Positions 16,298 through 54,173 of a stretch of 54,173 bases of DNA are shown piece after piece. The first letter of the stretch is position 1. The number at the start of each line of letters is the position of its first letter. Under the pieces are notes generated by a model that saw nothing but the letters and a program-made list of their open reading frames with translations, was not told the DNA's origin and did not search any database. The DNA lies in the IMG/VR virus record IMGVR_UViG_3300013101_000011, positions 1-54,173 of that record; one strand, written 5' to 3'. The translations under genes and the position numbers were made by a program. Origin of the DNA: a virus (taxonomy: Duplodnaviria; Caudoviricetes).

Positions 16298-17269
16298 CTA
16301 CCGCACAGAATTGATAATATCCATATGCTTATTGTAGATCCAATTGTCCCAATATTCCTTATCGCTAGTCTCAGGGAGGCTGGATGCTGCGGCAAGTCTA
16401 GTAACCTCTGCAACCAATTCCTCAATAGCTGGTTGAACGACATCCTTGTAACCACATTTGCCAAGCTTGACATCCATGATAAAGTCTGTCTCCGGCAGAG
16501 GGTAATTGAACCCGCCAATCTCGTAAATGTATTTTGCTTGGTAGCCTGCGCGAAGTGCGTGACTAACTGCTTTCCAGTCAACGCCCATATTGCTTTCAGC
16601 TTTCTTTGCGCGATGACCATAGCCATCATAAATCTTTTGCATGTTATCTAAGATATACGGAAGCTTGTTTTTGAAGTCGAACTTACGTTGGCAAATTTCG
16701 TAGAAGTGTTGCTTCTCACCTTTAACTTCGGTTTCGACAATGTATGCATGTTCGCCAATTGGAATGTCGTCGATAACTTCTCCCAATTTCCATTCGTGAC
16801 CATCCTCACCATAGGTACCAAATTGTCTAAGGTAATCCATTGCCTCTGTTAATGCTGCAAGGCGCGAACCTTTAACACCATACTTCGCGGCTTGGCCTTG
16901 TACATAATCAACATATGAGGACATGTCTTTTGTGTAGAACAGGTGCCTCTTTTCCTGCAACTCTGCCCAAATTGGAGATGGGATTAAGACCTGCGCGTCC
17001 GATGCGTGAAGCATATCTATTGCAGTATTCTTTCCAGCCATTGCCATTTTTACAAACTTCTGCAAGCTCATAATTTCGTTGTCGACATCGTCTGCGGTGT
17101 TCTTGCTCACGTCATCGCCAGTGGATTGCTTGCGGCTGAAGTCTGCCTCTTGCATGATAATTTCTTTTGCAGTTGGCAACACAATAGCCGCGTAATCAAT
17201 ATCGCTTCCTTCGTGGTTCAACCCATACAGGTGAGAACCATATTCCATTTTTACTACAATTTCGTTCAT
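16298..17269 (-). CDS. Pol-beta superfamily nucleotidyltransferase, T4 NrdC.11/RlaP-like
   Basis: YGSHLYG...SDID; QAAKYGVKGSR; DWKAVSHA motifs. Confidence 0.8.
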   Translation of the reverse strand: MNEIVVKMEYGSHLYGLNHEGSDIDYAAIVLPTAKEIIMQEADFSRKQSTGDDVSKNTADDVDNEIMSLQKFVKMAMAGKNTAIDMLHASDAQVLIPSPIWAELQEKRHLFYTKDMSSYVDYVQGQAAKYGVKGSRLAALTEAMDYLRQFGTYGEDGHEWKLGEVIDDIPIGEHAYIVETEVKGEKQHFYEICQRKFDFKNKLPYILDNMQKIYDGYGHRAKKAESNMGVDWKAVSHALRAGYQAKYIYEIGGFNYPLPETDFIMDVKLGKCGYKDVVQPAIEELVAEVTRLAAASSLPETSDKEYWDNWIYNKHMDIINSVR

Positions 17270-30091: not shown

Positions 30092-30601
30092 CTATTTATT
30101 TACTTTATGTCTAAGCCTATAATATCTGCCCTGACAGGCACTACAGCTTATTCCTAATTTTTTTGCCGCCTCACGTTTTCCTATTCTATCGCAAAGCTCT
30201 ATTAATTCTTTTGGATCCATTGCTGGCTTCCGGCCTCCGTTTTTTGCCTTCGCCCTATAAATTGGATCAGTAGCATATTTCGCGTTTAACGACTTAGACA
30301 AATTCTTTCGATGTTTGTCTGATTTTCCTTGTCCTATTCCACCCTTGCCGCCTACTTTCATATTATAACATTGTTGATCTTTTACCAGCTCTTCAGTTAC
30401 GATTTCGGCCTCTCTACTAAATGCTTCGTCTGCTGTCTCGAATCTTTCGAGTACTTCTCTTTTAAATTTTTTAGTTCCGTACTTTTTAATGGCTTGTAAC
30501 AGAGCTGTCCCGGAACCTTTGTAACACGAATTAGTTAATCCATGGACTCCGATATAATATTTCCCATTAATAAGATTGGTAGTTTTATATAAAATATGCA
30601 C
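30092..30601 (-). mobile_element. Free-standing GIY-YIG (Seg-like) homing endonuclease gene in tRNA operon 2
   Basis: LYKTTNLINGKYYIG, YKGSG, YN...GG motifs; C-terminal HTH. Confidence 0.8.
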
Positions 30602-31142: not shown

Positions 31143-31217
31143 TGGTGCTCCGACGGAGAATCGAACTCCGATCGCCGGGTTGAAAGCCCAGTGTTCTAAC
31201 CATTAAACTACCAGAGC
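31143..31217 (-). tRNA. tRNA-Glu(UUC)
   Basis: CTGGG-CTTTCAA-CCCGG; ACCA. Confidence 0.85.
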
Positions 31218-31223
31218 GTAGTT

Positions 31224-31376
31224 TGGTACCCAGGGCAGGAGTCGAACCTGCAAAACAATACGACTATTTCCAGAAACATTGTTACGGCCTTTCTGGTCAT
31301 ATCCGCTCACCCTCTGCTTATTCTTCAGAGGTCACCCCCTTCAGGGAGGGCCGCTTTGCCATTTGCGTACCCGGGC
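31224..31376 (-). ncRNA. Giant 153-nt tRNA-like RNA with Leu-like body and ambiguous anticodon
   Basis: Acceptor GCCCGGG/CCTGGGT, D arm, GCAGG-TTCGACT-CCTGC, ACCA; about 80-nt structured insert. Confidence 0.65.
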
Positions 31377-31383
31377 ATAAATT

Positions 31384-31466
31384 TGGTATGCGGAGAGGGA
31401 GTCGAACCCTCAAGGGCCTTGTTTCTAAAACAAGTAGGTGTACCAATTTCCATTAGCCACCCGCGC
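31384..31466 (-). tRNA. tRNA-Leu(UAG), short variable arm and enlarged D region
   Basis: CTTGT-TTTAGAA-ACAAG; ACCA. Confidence 0.75.
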
Positions 31467-31477
31467 ATAAATAAAAC

Positions 31478-31680
31478 GTTGTAACCGATAGCCAGGATTC
31501 TGTCTTGGACAGTCATTCATCTATTGGCCGTTACCCGAGCATCATAGGATGGAACTTACCTAGCTCTGTTTACGTTGCAAACCCCTTTCGTATATCGCAG
31601 TACCAACGACCGAAGTCTCCTGCACGTTCCGGGCCTGTCCTGAGCTTCCTCACCTTACGGTGCGACTGCCTGGTTACAAC
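31478..31680 (-). ncRNA. rnpB: Minimal RNase P RNA-like gene, about 200 nt
   Basis: P1 GTTGTAACC/GGTTACAAC; CAGTCGC; GAGGAAGCTCAGGA pairs with TCCTGGCT (P4 with bulged U); TAGATGAATGACTGTCCAAGACAGAA 3' conserved block. Confidence 0.85.
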
Positions 31681-31771
31681 TAACTCTAAATCTTATACGG
31701 TTCCTATATCACCCATCGTCACCGTCAACCATTGAGGTAATGAGTAGGTTAGTACCCACGACCTGTTTGCC

Positions 31772-31851
31772 TGGTGTTACTGACGGGGATCGAACCCGCA
31801 TTTTCCTGGGTGAAAACCAAGCTGCCTAGTCCAAGTTTAGCAGACAGTAAC
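31772..31851 (-). tRNA. tRNA-Glu(UUC)
   Basis: CTTGG-TTTTCAC-CCAGG; ACCA. Confidence 0.85.
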
Positions 31852-31870
31852 ATAATTCTTTTGTACAATT

Positions 31871-31944
31871 TGGTGTGTCCCACGAGAATCAAACTCGTTC
31901 CTAAAGGGCCACAACCTCTAATGCTATCACTACACCAAGGACAC
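31871..31944 (-). tRNA. tRNA-His(GUG), atypical (A73, no G-1)
   Basis: AGAGG-TTGTGGC-CCTTT; ACCA. Confidence 0.7.
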
Positions 31945-31968
31945 TTTAAATTGTACTATAATTTACTT

Positions 31969-32044
31969 TGGGGTGACGTACGGGGTTCGAACCCGTTCCG
32001 ACTGAATCACAATCAGCCATGCTTCCAAGTACACCTACGTCACC
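31969..32044 (-). tRNA. tRNA-His(GUG)
   Basis: G-1/C73; GCTGA-TTGTGAT-TCAGT; CCA. Confidence 0.9.
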
Positions 32045-32071
32045 CCAAAATAAACTATTTCTTCTACTCAT

Positions 32072-32103
32072 AAAAAAACCCGACTTGCTTTCGCTGCCGG
32101 GTT
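32072..32103 (-). terminator. Attenuator-type intrinsic terminator of tRNA operon 2
   Basis: AACCCGGCAGCGAAAGCAAGTCGGG-T7; its 5' arm can alternatively pair with leader segment 32158-32169. Confidence 0.8.
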
Positions 32104-32134
32104 CAGTGTAAATCTTTTGTTAGAAGGAAACTAT

Positions 32135-37074: not shown

Positions 37075-37150
37075 TGGGGGAATGGCCGGGACTCGAACCC
37101 GGGACCGGCGGAGTTAAAAGCCGCTGCTCTGCCAACTGAGCTACCAAACC
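37075..37150 (-). tRNA. tRNA with UUA anticodon (ochre-suppressor-like), mismatched acceptor stem
   Basis: 76 nt; canonical numbering gives GCGGC-TT[TTA]AC-TCCGC; U-U at 3:70 and 4:69; C73; CCA. Confidence 0.65.
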
Positions 37151-51948: not shown

Positions 51949-52293
51949 CTAATTTTCGAGAGGACCGTACCCTTTATCGTCTTCGTACCAATAAATGTAC
52001 TGTTTAACTTCGCCCTTATAGCCGGACCCTTTTAGTCCTTTAAGGTGGCCGGTTTTCGGGCATTCTGAGTGATACCATATTACATCATTGCCGAATTGCT
52101 TCTTCAACATCCATTGGCGATGTGCTTTTAGTTTACCGAGATGCAGCAACAATTTGGTTTTTCGCTTTTTATTGAAACCGATGAATCCATTTAGCCGGAT
52201 GTGCGCATCTTGGATTGAGCAGTTTATATCCAAAAGCCGCGGCCATTGTGTTTCGTAAAACATTTTATGAATTACAAGATTTTGAATTTTCAT
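51949..52293 (-). CDS. Hypothetical protein
   Basis: Coupled ORF. Confidence 0.55.
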   Translation of the reverse strand: MKIQNLVIHKMFYETQWPRLLDINCSIQDAHIRLNGFIGFNKKRKTKLLLHLGKLKAHRQWMLKKQFGNDVIWYHSECPKTGHLKGLKGSGYKGEVKQYIYWYEDDKGYGPLEN

Positions 52294-52928
52294 TACTTCC
52301 TCTTGCCGTCCTCATGGCGTGGTTCAGTTACTTCGCACTTGCTCATTATCTTAACAAGGTCCCAAATATTCCACGGATAGTAATCGTTAGTGTCGACTCC
52401 GATGTCTCGTCCTCGGCCTGCTGCTACTTGCGGAACGGATCCATGTGTATGTCCGTAAAAATGGAATGCTCCGTGGTGCATACGATTCCACGTATACAAA
52501 GGATAATGCAATAAGATGATCGGAGCAGGACCGGGTTGCGGCAGCTTCAATTCGTGGTAGTCCTTCATCCAAACAAACTGATCTAAGATCAACTTCATCT
52601 TAGTCTTACGCAGTTGCCTGTCGTGATTACCAAAAATGAAATGCTTGTTACCATTCATTCGTACCAGGATCTCTGAGATTTCCGTTTCGTTCGCAAACGC
52701 AAAGTCGCCTAAGAAGTATACGTCATCACTGTACTTTACGACAGAGTTATGACGCTCGATCATTTCCTCACGCATATGAGTCGTGTCGGTAAATGGGCGA
52801 TCGCAAAAACGGATAATGTTCTTGTGCCCAAAGTGGTGATCAGATGTCACCCAAATGTTCTTTCTTTCGTTCATTCTGTTTCTTCTGTTTCTTCCTCTTT
52901 CTTCGGCACCAACGATACCACTGGGCAT
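52293..52928 (-). CDS. Calcineurin-like metallophosphoesterase
   Basis: SDHHFGH, LGD, GNHD, HYP and GHTH motifs; true start probably 52874. Confidence 0.9.
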   Translation of the reverse strand: MPSGIVGAEERGRNRRNRMNERKNIWVTSDHHFGHKNIIRFCDRPFTDTTHMREEMIERHNSVVKYSDDVYFLGDFAFANETEISEILVRMNGNKHFIFGNHDRQLRKTKMKLILDQFVWMKDYHELKLPQPGPAPIILLHYPLYTWNRMHHGAFHFYGHTHGSVPQVAAGRGRDIGVDTNDYYPWNIWDLVKIMSKCEVTEPRHEDGKRK

Positions 52929-53425: not shown

Positions 53426-54173
53426 TCATGTTAGAACCTCGCGGTCGAAAAAGTCTCGCAAATATGCAAAACGTTCCTGCTCAGTCAACACCATAAATGC
53501 ATCCTTGTTCTCTGCTAAATGATCCAACACGATATAATACTCTTCGTCTAGAATCTGTTTTGCAGCTCGCGTATCATCTAAGATTTCGTTCAACCGCTTT
53601 TCAGTCTTGCGTCCTAAAAATTTAGTAGCTAGGTAATATGGAGACTTGATTTTAATTTCGTTTCCAAAGTCGTCCCATACTACAAATCCTTCATGCTTCA
53701 CTGTGCGAGCTTCCTCTTTCAATTTAGCATAAGTATCGTAACGGTGCCAGTTTGGACGTCTGCATCCTAATTTATCTGCCTCTGCATCTAGTTCTGTTTC
53801 AGTCAATGCATGTTGATCGGCGTCCCAAGTCTTATAGCGAGCACCTAACAAATATGCTCCATATACTTCTGGCACGATGTGCGGATCGGTGGGATCGCAT
53901 ATTTCAAATGTGTAAGACAAGTCCGGATTCATCTTAAACCATGCCAACATCATAATATGATGTTCCGCAAGGTCTGCAAAATCAGACGCAATTGATCCTG
54001 TTGTAGATACGAACAATTCATTCTTATGTATTGTTGCGCAACCCATAAATCCGTTAATCTTTTCTGAGGCTGTGCAGGGCTTAGTCACTAACAAGCGCGG
54101 TGCCTTCTTTTCGTGTGCATTGAAAATCTTAGTAGGCGGGCGTTGGATGATGTTGTAATCATCGTCAACAACA
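53426..54173 (-). CDS. RNA ligase, T4 Rnl1-like, 5' end outside the window
   Basis: KIFN, EKINGF, FEI, EGFV and KIK motifs; frame open to the window edge. Confidence 0.85.
   Translation of the reverse strand, partial: VVDDDYNIIQRPPTKIFNAHEKKAPRLLVTKPCTASEKINGFMGCATIHKNELFVSTTGSIASDFADLAEHHIMMLAWFKMNPDLSYTFEICDPTDPHIVPEVYGAYLLGARYKTWDADQHALTETELDAEADKLGCRRPNWHRYDTYAKLKEEARTVKHEGFVVWDDFGNEIKIKSPYYLATKFLGRKTEKRLNEILDDTRAAKQILDEEYYIVLDHLAENKDAFMVLTEQERFAYLRDFFDREVLT

Follow-up and report, generated by a model that had tools for sequence, protein, structure and literature searches.

A miniature type A RNase P RNA in a phage tRNA gene array, and its family in phages and other mobile elements

The viral record IMGVR_UViG_3300013101_000011 of IMG/VR, whose 54,173 bases were analysed as a whole and are called the window here, carries on its minus strand a 203-nucleotide (nt) RNA gene (31680 to 31478) that, judging by its sequence, descends from the bacterial type A RNase P RNA. 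The catalytic domain of that ribozyme (P1-P6 plus P15-P17) is retained as a whole, and most of the specificity domain (S-domain) is missing. This gene belongs to a family of miniature (mini) RNase P RNAs that is widespread in phages and other mobile elements, apparently undescribed, and normally found among tRNA genes of the same strand. We consider it probable, at roughly three chances in four, that the RNA works as a minimal RNase P RNA acting on the pre-tRNAs of the phage.

It has long been asked how much of RNase P RNA, a universal ribozyme, is required in vivo. To our knowledge, no natural bacterial-type RNase P RNAs devoid of the specificity domain have been described. The family presented here would amount to a domain-deletion experiment run many times by evolution, since it comprises 72 distinct sequences with G+C contents from 38% to 66%, and it would add an RNA enzyme to the translation-related functions carried by large phages and by mobile tRNA arrays. 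Standard annotation overlooks these genes, including the copy present in the sequenced and cultured Stenotrophomonas phage vB_SmaS-DLP_6 (DLP6).

The catalytic domain in 203 nucleotides

Type A RNase P RNAs (RF00010, the type of the Escherichia coli M1 RNA) are about 350-400 nt long and constitute the essential copy of the cell. They share with the mini RNAs, of about 200 nt, the catalytic architecture formed by P1-P6 and P15-P17, as well as the joining regions L15 GGU, J18/2 block and J2/4. Contrary to the mini RNAs, they also contain the P7-P14 modules that read the T-loop, replaced in the former by a stem-hairpin of ~40 nt, and P18, which the mini RNAs lack. The mini RNA is, in addition, an accessory gene, carried by phages and by a conjugative element.

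The RF00010 model aligns to the window RNA from end to end (31473-31681(-), model positions 1-367). The 5' part of the alignment matches P1, P2, P3, J3/4 and the 5' strand of P4; the middle part, J5/15, P15, P16/17 and a 'GGGUa' loop; and the 3' part, the J18/2 block, the 3' strand of P2, J2/4, and the 3' strands of P4 and P1. What is missing is P7-P14 with their T-loop-binding modules, as model positions ~59-235 are deleted and unaligned inserts totalling ~56 nt stand in their place, where only a stem of 4-5 bp and a 3-bp hairpin are left. P18 is missing too, its 23 model positions being reduced to a single base; a few larger relatives, such as that of locus L028, have extra sequence at this place.

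The whole gene runs from the 5' strand to the 3' strand of P1 (31478-31680, the extent supported by RF00010 and by the two family models R1 and R2 introduced below), and all the coordinates of its parts are on the minus strand; the pair counts refer to the family alignment. P1 joins both ends with 9 bp (31672-31680 with 31478-31486), all nine of which have changed on both sides within the family, with 91% of the alignment cells pairing. It is followed by P2, of 7 bp (31664-31670 with 31508-31514; 5 of 6 modelled pairs covary, 97% of cells pair), and by P3, a hairpin of 4 bp with a tetraloop (31651-31662; 2 of 3 modelled pairs covary, 99% of cells pair). J3/4 (31647-31650) and the 7-bp P4 with its bulged U (5' strand 31639-31646, 3' strand 31490-31496) agree with the RF00010 consensus. 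The same is true of the 31497-31528 stretch, which holds a linker replacing P18, a J18/2-type block (31515-31528), the 3' strand of P2 and J2/4 (31497-31507). A 3-nt joiner separates the 3' strand of P4 (31490-31496) from that of P1 (31478-31486). Thus P4 keeps both its bulged U and the conserved J3/4 and J2/4 that flank it.

The remaining helices of the catalytic domain are also present. P5 (31631-31637 with 31578-31584) covaries at all five of its modelled pairs, and the P6 pseudoknot, supported by cognate-pairing energies, joins 31626-31630 to the loop of P17 (31551-31555). J5/15 measures 3 nt (31575-31577), and both this joiner and P15 (31572-31574 with 31529-31531; 3 of 3 pairs covary) are placed by the RF00010 alignment. 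The P16/P17 stem-loop (31537-31566), whose loop gives the 3' strand of P6, covaries at 8 of 8 modelled pairs and is looser than the other helices, with 74% of cells pairing. The L15 loop (31532-31536) is the part aligned to the 'GGGUa' of RF00010, and its GGU motif, whose counterpart in type A RNAs pairs with the 3'-CCA of the tRNA, is present in the window RNA and in the family consensus.

In the place of the specificity domain, the alignment inserts and the family consensus define a remnant at 31585-31624. It consists of a P7-like stem (31620-31624 with 31596-31600; 96% of cells pair, 3 of 4 pairs covary), an inner 3-bp hairpin (31608-31617; 96% of cells pair, 2 of 3 pairs covary), a conserved joiner (31601-31607), and a J7/5 linker (31585-31595).

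The match to RF00010 is significant and low-scoring. It reached 49.7 bits (E 5.2e-16) in a record-level search and 41.1 bits (E 7.2e-12) in a cmscan of a 226-base slice, both below the 100-bit gathering cut-off of the family, because the specificity domain and P18 are absent. By the Rfam score, therefore, the RNA falls outside RF00010. Its detection also depends on search filters, as it was matched only through the short slice or the record-level search: the Rfam search of the whole window at the gathering threshold reported tRNAs and not RF00010, and a scan of 601 bases gave no RNase P model match at E<=10. Among the type A, type B (RF00011), archaeal (RF00373) and type T (RF02357) models, RF00010 is the sole one to match the element, with zero matches to the other three at E<=10. 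Folding of the element as a single sequence was no better than that of its shuffles (z -1.28), so the support for its structure is comparative; the 90-nt spacer upstream of the element gave a similar outcome (z 0.08).

A miniature RNase P RNA derived from type A, with most of its S-domain missing and lying within the tRNA genes of a phage, had been proposed at exactly this location in an earlier note on this DNA, which had recognised P1, P2, a short P3, P4 with its bulged U, and a 3' block, found here at 31497-31528. The present results agree with this description and assign the gene to the minus strand. The comparison with the Rfam RNase P models, which the note had put forward as a check, gave the RF00010 match below the gathering cut-off. 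P5, the P6 pseudoknot, P15-P17 with the CCA-binding loop, the loss of P18, and the large family to which the RNA belongs were missed there.

A family of mini RNase P RNAs and the selection on its fold

With the window element as query, BLAST over 50,697 phage records yielded short fragments only, either tRNA-like pieces or the 3' block of bacterial rnpB, and the method is too weak to reveal the mini family from this query; when other members were used as queries, BLAST did retrieve DLP6 and the phages LR756502 and LR756511. Most of the family was found with sequence patterns instead. The first pattern, the 5' motif of P4 followed by a gap of 100-130 nt and the J18/2 motif, gave 26 loci in viral contigs, 16 of them with a similar miniature RNA; the remaining ten were rejected as chance matches in coding-like sequence, and none matched R1. 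Three further viral loci came from a gap of 130-160 nt and none from one of 70-100 nt, and the 3' block alone gave 40 viral loci, 23 of them new. A similar pattern found 3 loci over one genome per species (185,579 species), and 67 over metagenome contigs.

The covariance model R1 was built from 11 trimmed members and a hand-derived structure. At E<=1e-12 it matched 89 places, including 63 of the 67 metagenome loci, with the other four falling short of this value. These matches represent the 72 distinct sequences mentioned above, which are 180-274 nt long, form ~50 clusters at 80% identity, and come from viral contigs, metagenomes and three bacterial genomes.

The window element scores 168.8 bits with R1. 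A second model, R2, was made from 55 members, each less than 75% identical to the window element and with this element excluded, and it finds the element in full length at 31477-31682(-), with 153 bits (E 6.3e-47). On four full-size RNase P RNAs the same model gives 64.3 bits, 42.9 bits and, for two of them, no match. The window RNA is thus a member of the mini family by a full-length match to a model derived from other members, and its relatives at 90%, 82% and 75% identity share its architecture. As for RF00010, scores of 82.7, 69.1 and 54.7 bits were obtained for other members, and no match for two, so the mini RNAs range from 41 to 83 bits when detected, and every member tested lies below the 100-bit cut-off.

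These observations bear on whether the window copy might be a decaying, non-functional remnant of a captured rnpB. Its score below the Rfam threshold would fit such an origin, as would the fact that at least one family match looks truncated, namely the 140-nt copy at L044 3559-3698, which lacks the 5' half, including the 5' strand of P4, is otherwise close to L014, and is probably a truncated or disrupted gene. Nevertheless, decay of the window copy is hardly credible, given that it is recovered in full length by a model made without it, that it has no broken helices, that 7 of 7 P4 pairs and P6 form, and that relatives at 75-90% identity keep the same architecture.

Covariation provides the evidence for the fold. 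Across the 72 distinct sequences, 92.3% of the cells form standard pairs, in comparison with 63.6% in shuffled controls, none of which reached that value in 500 trials, and with 33-42% when the partners are slid by 1-3 columns; compensatory changes, affecting both sides, occur in 42 of the 48 pairs. A set of 24 sequences gives similar values (91.7% of cells pairing, 38 of the 48 pairs changed on both sides). For all the helices except P4 and P6, the alignments used in these counts were fitted to the model and hence lean towards the modelled helices.

P4 and P6 were left out of the model because they form pseudoknots, and this makes them independent tests of the fold. P4, located by its flanking motifs only, is fully paired in the 26 members examined, a set that includes three members found by BLAST and not by pattern, and compensatory changes affect 5 of its 7 pairs. 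All 26 members also have its bulged U, with the U itself fixed by the search regular expression. Regarding P6, the cognate J5/7-L17 duplexes have a mean energy of -8.9 kcal/mol, versus -3.8 kcal/mol for non-cognate ones, and 0 of 10,000 permutations were as good.

The core joining regions J3/4, J5/15, L15 GGU, J18/2-type block and J2/4 are all retained. Since the patterns that yielded most members prescribe parts of P4, the J18/2 block and J2/4, the invariance of these parts is largely imposed by the search; the J18/2 block does vary among the members found by BLAST. No search pattern imposes the conservation of J5/15, whose bases are invariant in 23 of 23 rows, of the L15 GGU, or of a short motif in the S-domain remnant. 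The fold is under selection across the family.

tRNA arrays, carriers and the protein partner

All 20 tRNA genes of the window (Rfam, ARAGORN) lie on the strand of the element, in two clusters, and CCA is encoded directly after the discriminator base in every one of them. Upstream of the element there are tRNA genes for His, His and Glu (31772-32043(-), found by Rfam and ARAGORN), with the tRNA-Glu ending 89 nt before the R1 match and 91 nt before P1. Downstream, a tRNA-like gene that has the anticodon loop UAG and encodes CCA (31387-31466(-)) starts 11 nt past P1; it scores 26.7 bits (E 0.0011) with RF00005, whose cut-off is 29 bits, and ARAGORN makes no call for it. The relatives L120 and L096 have a tRNA-Leu on the downstream side of the element, at distances of 4 nt and ~96 nt, respectively. 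Upstream of the His-His-Glu genes, a centroid fold showed a terminator-like hairpin with seven U behind it (~32070-32104(-)). This hairpin is not listed by the consensus terminator scan, which predicts no minus-strand terminators between it and the RNA or inside the cluster, so that co-transcription of the RNA with the tRNAs is plausible.

The same setting is observed across the family. tRNA genes occur in the surrounding stretch examined for 63 of the 72 distinct elements and, among those called by ARAGORN, 696 are on the strand of the element and 2 on the opposite one. A same-strand tRNA gene lies within 20 nt of 43 of the 72 elements (27 upstream, 30 downstream, 14 on both sides), and in many members the next tRNA is 1-13 nt downstream. 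Because tRNA genes recognised by ARAGORN surround the family, the idea of the earlier note that the reduced enzyme may suit non-canonical tRNAs was set aside as unsupported. Its claim that an attenuator controls the RNA is likewise unsupported, although the terminator-like hairpin described above does exist upstream.

Some genes in these arrays are of interest on their own. In the window (37075-37150(-), 53.3 bits with the Rfam tRNA model) and in L028 (1065-1139), ARAGORN calls a tRNA whose UUA anticodon would decode the stop codon UAA, and which may act as an ochre suppressor or point to recoding. At 31215-31375(-) of the window, a tRNA-like gene can be seen by eye: its anticodon loop is of the Ser type (UGA), its T arm is good and CCA is encoded, but the T arm is separated from the anticodon arm by ~80 additional bases; it is not called by ARAGORN, and Rfam sees its T arm only (12.5 bits). 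tmRNA genes share the tRNA arrays with the mini RNA in L021 (1020-1389), L030 (6227-6635) and L033 (1822-2187).

The window, which is classed as linear and represents ~16% of a genome according to CheckV, looks like part of a large T4-related phage, a view based on its gene content. The sequencing runs found for this stretch were DNA metagenome contigs, with no RNA run among them. It encodes an NrdC.11-like nucleotidyltransferase (PHROG 388, E 2e-86; Pfam RlaP) that is 44% identical to a protein of phage RB16 and whose search gave matches in 1531 phage records, together with a T4 Rnl1-type RNA ligase, an ATP-dependent DNA ligase and several families known from PHROG only, that is, from phages. 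A Seg/GIY-YIG-like homing endonuclease (PHROG 314, E 1e-35) is located inside the tRNA cluster, between tRNA-Leu and tRNA-Lys (30092-30601(-)). The RlaP/NrdC.11-like nucleotidyltransferase, a metallophosphoesterase and the T4 Rnl1-type RNA ligase (16298-17269, 52293-52928 and 53426-54094, respectively, all on the minus strand) look like an RNA-repair set, which fits a phage that defends its tRNA supply.

Other carriers include phages and bacterial mobile DNA. DLP6 has a 246-nt member (KU682439.2, ~105773-106018) in an unannotated gap, 7 nt before a tRNA-Arg (R1 99.6 bits; RF00010 54.7 bits), and members are also present in the uncultured phages LR756502 (642 kb) and LR756511 (595 kb). The three bacterial genomes with a mini copy additionally hold a full-size RNase P RNA (202-210 bits), which makes the mini RNA an accessory copy. 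In Achromobacter anxifer LMG 26857 it is found in an array of ~55 tRNA genes with a two-piece (permuted) tmRNA (L062 9460 to L063 6361), neighboured by a TrwB/TraD-type coupling protein, an extra gyrB, two AlkB-like 2OG oxygenases, an RNA ligase and thyA. The coupling protein indicates a conjugative element rather than a phage, and R1 has a match in only 1 of 151 genomes sampled from the bacterial family of Achromobacter.

From this company of genes it could be argued that the RNA is an active ribozyme with another job, such as processing tmRNA precursors, odd tRNA-like RNAs, the operon transcript or host RNAs, substrates to which it might have become specialised after the loss of its T-loop domain, or standing in, in a defence-proof version, for host RNase P RNA when that RNA or tRNA maturation comes under attack during infection. 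The module that stands in for the S-domain is itself conserved and covarying, so something is selected there. tmRNA genes occur in the arrays of L021, L030, L033 and the Achromobacter island, and the window has tRNA-like genes overlooked by standard tools. Moreover, the RlaP/NrdC.11-like protein and Rnl1 in the window, and the RNA ligase and AlkB-like oxygenases in the island, would fit an arms race over tRNAs. Still, ordinary pre-tRNAs are the substrates suggested by the GGU of the L15 loop and by the neighbouring tRNA genes, which encode CCA. This other activity is unlikely in our estimation, even though it overlaps with the action on phage pre-tRNAs proposed here, is compatible with the data, and is inseparable from it with them.

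The protein partner is usually not encoded by the carrier. Pfam Ribonuclease_P (rnpA) has no match in the window, in ten other viral records (two of them at least 90% complete), in DLP6 or in LR756511. Of the 14 viral records examined, rnpA is present in one, LR756502, as a 122-residue frame (~525123-525491 of LR756502.1, equivalent to L068 1435-1803) that scores 52 bits with PF00825 and 51.8 bits with TIGR00188, both above the cut-off. It lies ~90 kb from the mini RNA of this genome, which scores 85.8 bits with R1. As RF00010 detects no RNase P RNA anywhere in LR756502, the mini RNA is the only candidate partner of its RnpA.

The general lack of rnpA also brings up the case of a decoy or regulator, an RNA that would bind host RnpA or the 3' ends of pre-tRNAs and titrate or redirect host RNase P without cleaving. 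Such an RNA would profit from the C-domain regions that contact RnpA, which are retained. A virus-encoded RNase P-like RNA with no catalytic activity has been reported for poxviruses (PMC3001073, in the part available). A decoy, however, has no need of an intact P4 with its bulged U, J3/4, J2/4, J5/15, P6 and L15 across 72 diverged sequences, and LR756502 has an rnpA of its own in addition to a mini RNA, and no other RNase P RNA. Furthermore, titration of RNase P would starve the tRNA array of the phage itself. We consequently assign this role very little weight.

Proposed role, known systems and other sizes of the RNA

How a minimal RNase P would act can be outlined from the homology, the covarying fold, the family membership and the genomic context, all of them observed; expression, assembly with RnpA, catalysis and the benefit to the phage are what we infer from them. 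The RNA would be transcribed within the same-strand tRNA array of the phage and freed from the polycistronic transcript by the end-processing of the neighbouring tRNAs, its 3' end being set, in many members, by RNase P cleavage at the next tRNA. Once folded into the type A catalytic domain, it would join the RnpA of the host in most cases, and that of the phage in at least one huge phage. The resulting enzyme would remove the 5' leaders of the CCA-encoding pre-tRNAs of the phage, reading its substrates mainly through the acceptor end and CCA and not through the T-loop. The gain for the phage would be tRNA maturation without dependence on host rnpB during infection.

Precedent for such an activity comes from an engineered E. 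coli RNA. Deprived of the S-domain, its C-domain remains able to cleave, requires a 'P6-mimic' and derives no benefit from P18 (PMC5839562, in the part available), and the family agrees with this finding, since it keeps P6 and has lost P18. That engineered RNA (Eco CP RPR) is, like the mini RNA, a type A catalytic domain that has no S-domain, where P6-type pairing matters and P18 is dispensable, whereas the mini RNA is a natural, evolving gene family, known from sequence alone, with a small conserved substitute for the S-domain.

Several points weigh against the proposed role. The Rfam score of the window RNA is far under the family cut-off, and the S-domain modules that read the T-loop are absent from it. 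In E. coli, the C-domain alone cleaves with reduced efficiency (PMC5839562, in the part available). The pair counts of most helices come from alignments fitted to the model, and the search patterns largely dictated the invariance of P4, the J18/2 block and J2/4. In LR756502 and LR756511, the 3 kb on either side of the element are free of tRNA genes. Additionally, 12 of the 13 viral records other than the window are devoid of rnpA, including at least three that are complete or nearly so (L033, L047 and the complete DLP6 genome), so that function would usually rest on a host protein, whose fit to this RNA would be required. Finally, as the window represents only a fraction of its genome, a full-size RNase P RNA may be present elsewhere in the phage.

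A broader and more tentative view, which we regard as possible and somewhat short of even odds, is that of a mobile tRNA-supply kit, in which a catalytic-domain-only RNase P of ~200 nt would travel with tRNA arrays, tmRNA and RNA-repair genes, LR756502 would carry a full viral holoenzyme of RNA and protein, and the loss of the T-loop domain would be adaptive. If so, this loss would alter the choice of precursors, or release the enzyme from control by the host or from host defences directed at tRNA maturation. Direct tests of the role proposed for the mini RNA are within reach, because phage DLP6 and its host are both cultured and Achromobacter anxifer LMG 26857 exists as an isolate.

Among natural RNAs, the closest in size is the type T RNase P RNA of archaea (Thermoproteaceae, RF02357), which is also ~200 nt long and naturally lacks most of the S-domain while keeping the catalytic domain (PMC3579882, in the part available), as the mini RNA does. 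As far as described there, P2 of type T has 3 bp, and P15 and the P5/P15 linker are shortened; in the mini RNA, on the contrary, P2 has 7 bp (six modelled pairs across the family) and J5/15 has 3 nt. Type T is the only RNase P RNA of its organism and works with archaeal proteins, whereas the mini RNA is an extra copy on mobile DNA. The mini RNA is not of type T, given the lack of an RF02357 match, the longer P2, and a bacterial type A core with L15 and P6.

The only viral precedent that we met is the inactive RNase P-like RNA of camelpox virus and other orthopoxviruses, also virus-encoded and with some resemblance to RNase P RNA (PMC3001073, in the part available). According to that part, the poxvirus RNA shows a loose structural similarity, while the phage RNAs have the full bacterial active-site core, supported by covariation. 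Among open-access papers and bioRxiv preprints, our searches retrieved none that describes an RNase P RNA encoded by a phage, and 'RNase P' has no occurrences in the main texts, as far as available, of the papers on huge phages (PMC7162821) and on DLP6 (PMC5349666). tRNA arrays with tmRNA, sometimes accompanied by RNA-repair genes, are known from phages, plasmids and integrative elements and offer the same dense, same-strand setting; no paper was found in which RNase P RNA forms part of them.

Alongside the mini RNAs, viral contigs contain RNase P RNAs of other sizes, which together make up a spectrum of full-size, intermediate (246-293 nt, in several viral contigs) and mini forms. Full-size type A RNase P RNAs of 358 nt, scoring 168.3 bits and thus above the cut-off, are located near tRNA genes at L036 7348-7705 and L047 2738-3095, in viral contigs of 204,014 and 360,469 bases, respectively. 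Some huge phages hence carry an unreduced copy; the 360-kb record of L047 is 91% complete and has no rnpA.

Two further RNAs depart from the common architecture. At L016 10595-10798, in a viral contig of 190,723 bases (the same as L071), a differently reduced RNase P-like RNA of ~200 nt scores 46.9 bits with R1 and 64.6 bits with R2; judged by eye, a P8-like hairpin and a J11/12-like stretch are still there and the P15-P17 region is missing, and RNase P RNA may have become small here by an independent route. The member at L007 7789-8003 has a 5' region unlike that of the family, where an ordinary P3 is not seen. On visual inspection, the bases immediately preceding J2/4 are the partner of the strand that enters J3/4, and those immediately following the J18/2 block are the partner of the 3' tail; this copy may have a rearranged P1-P3 region.

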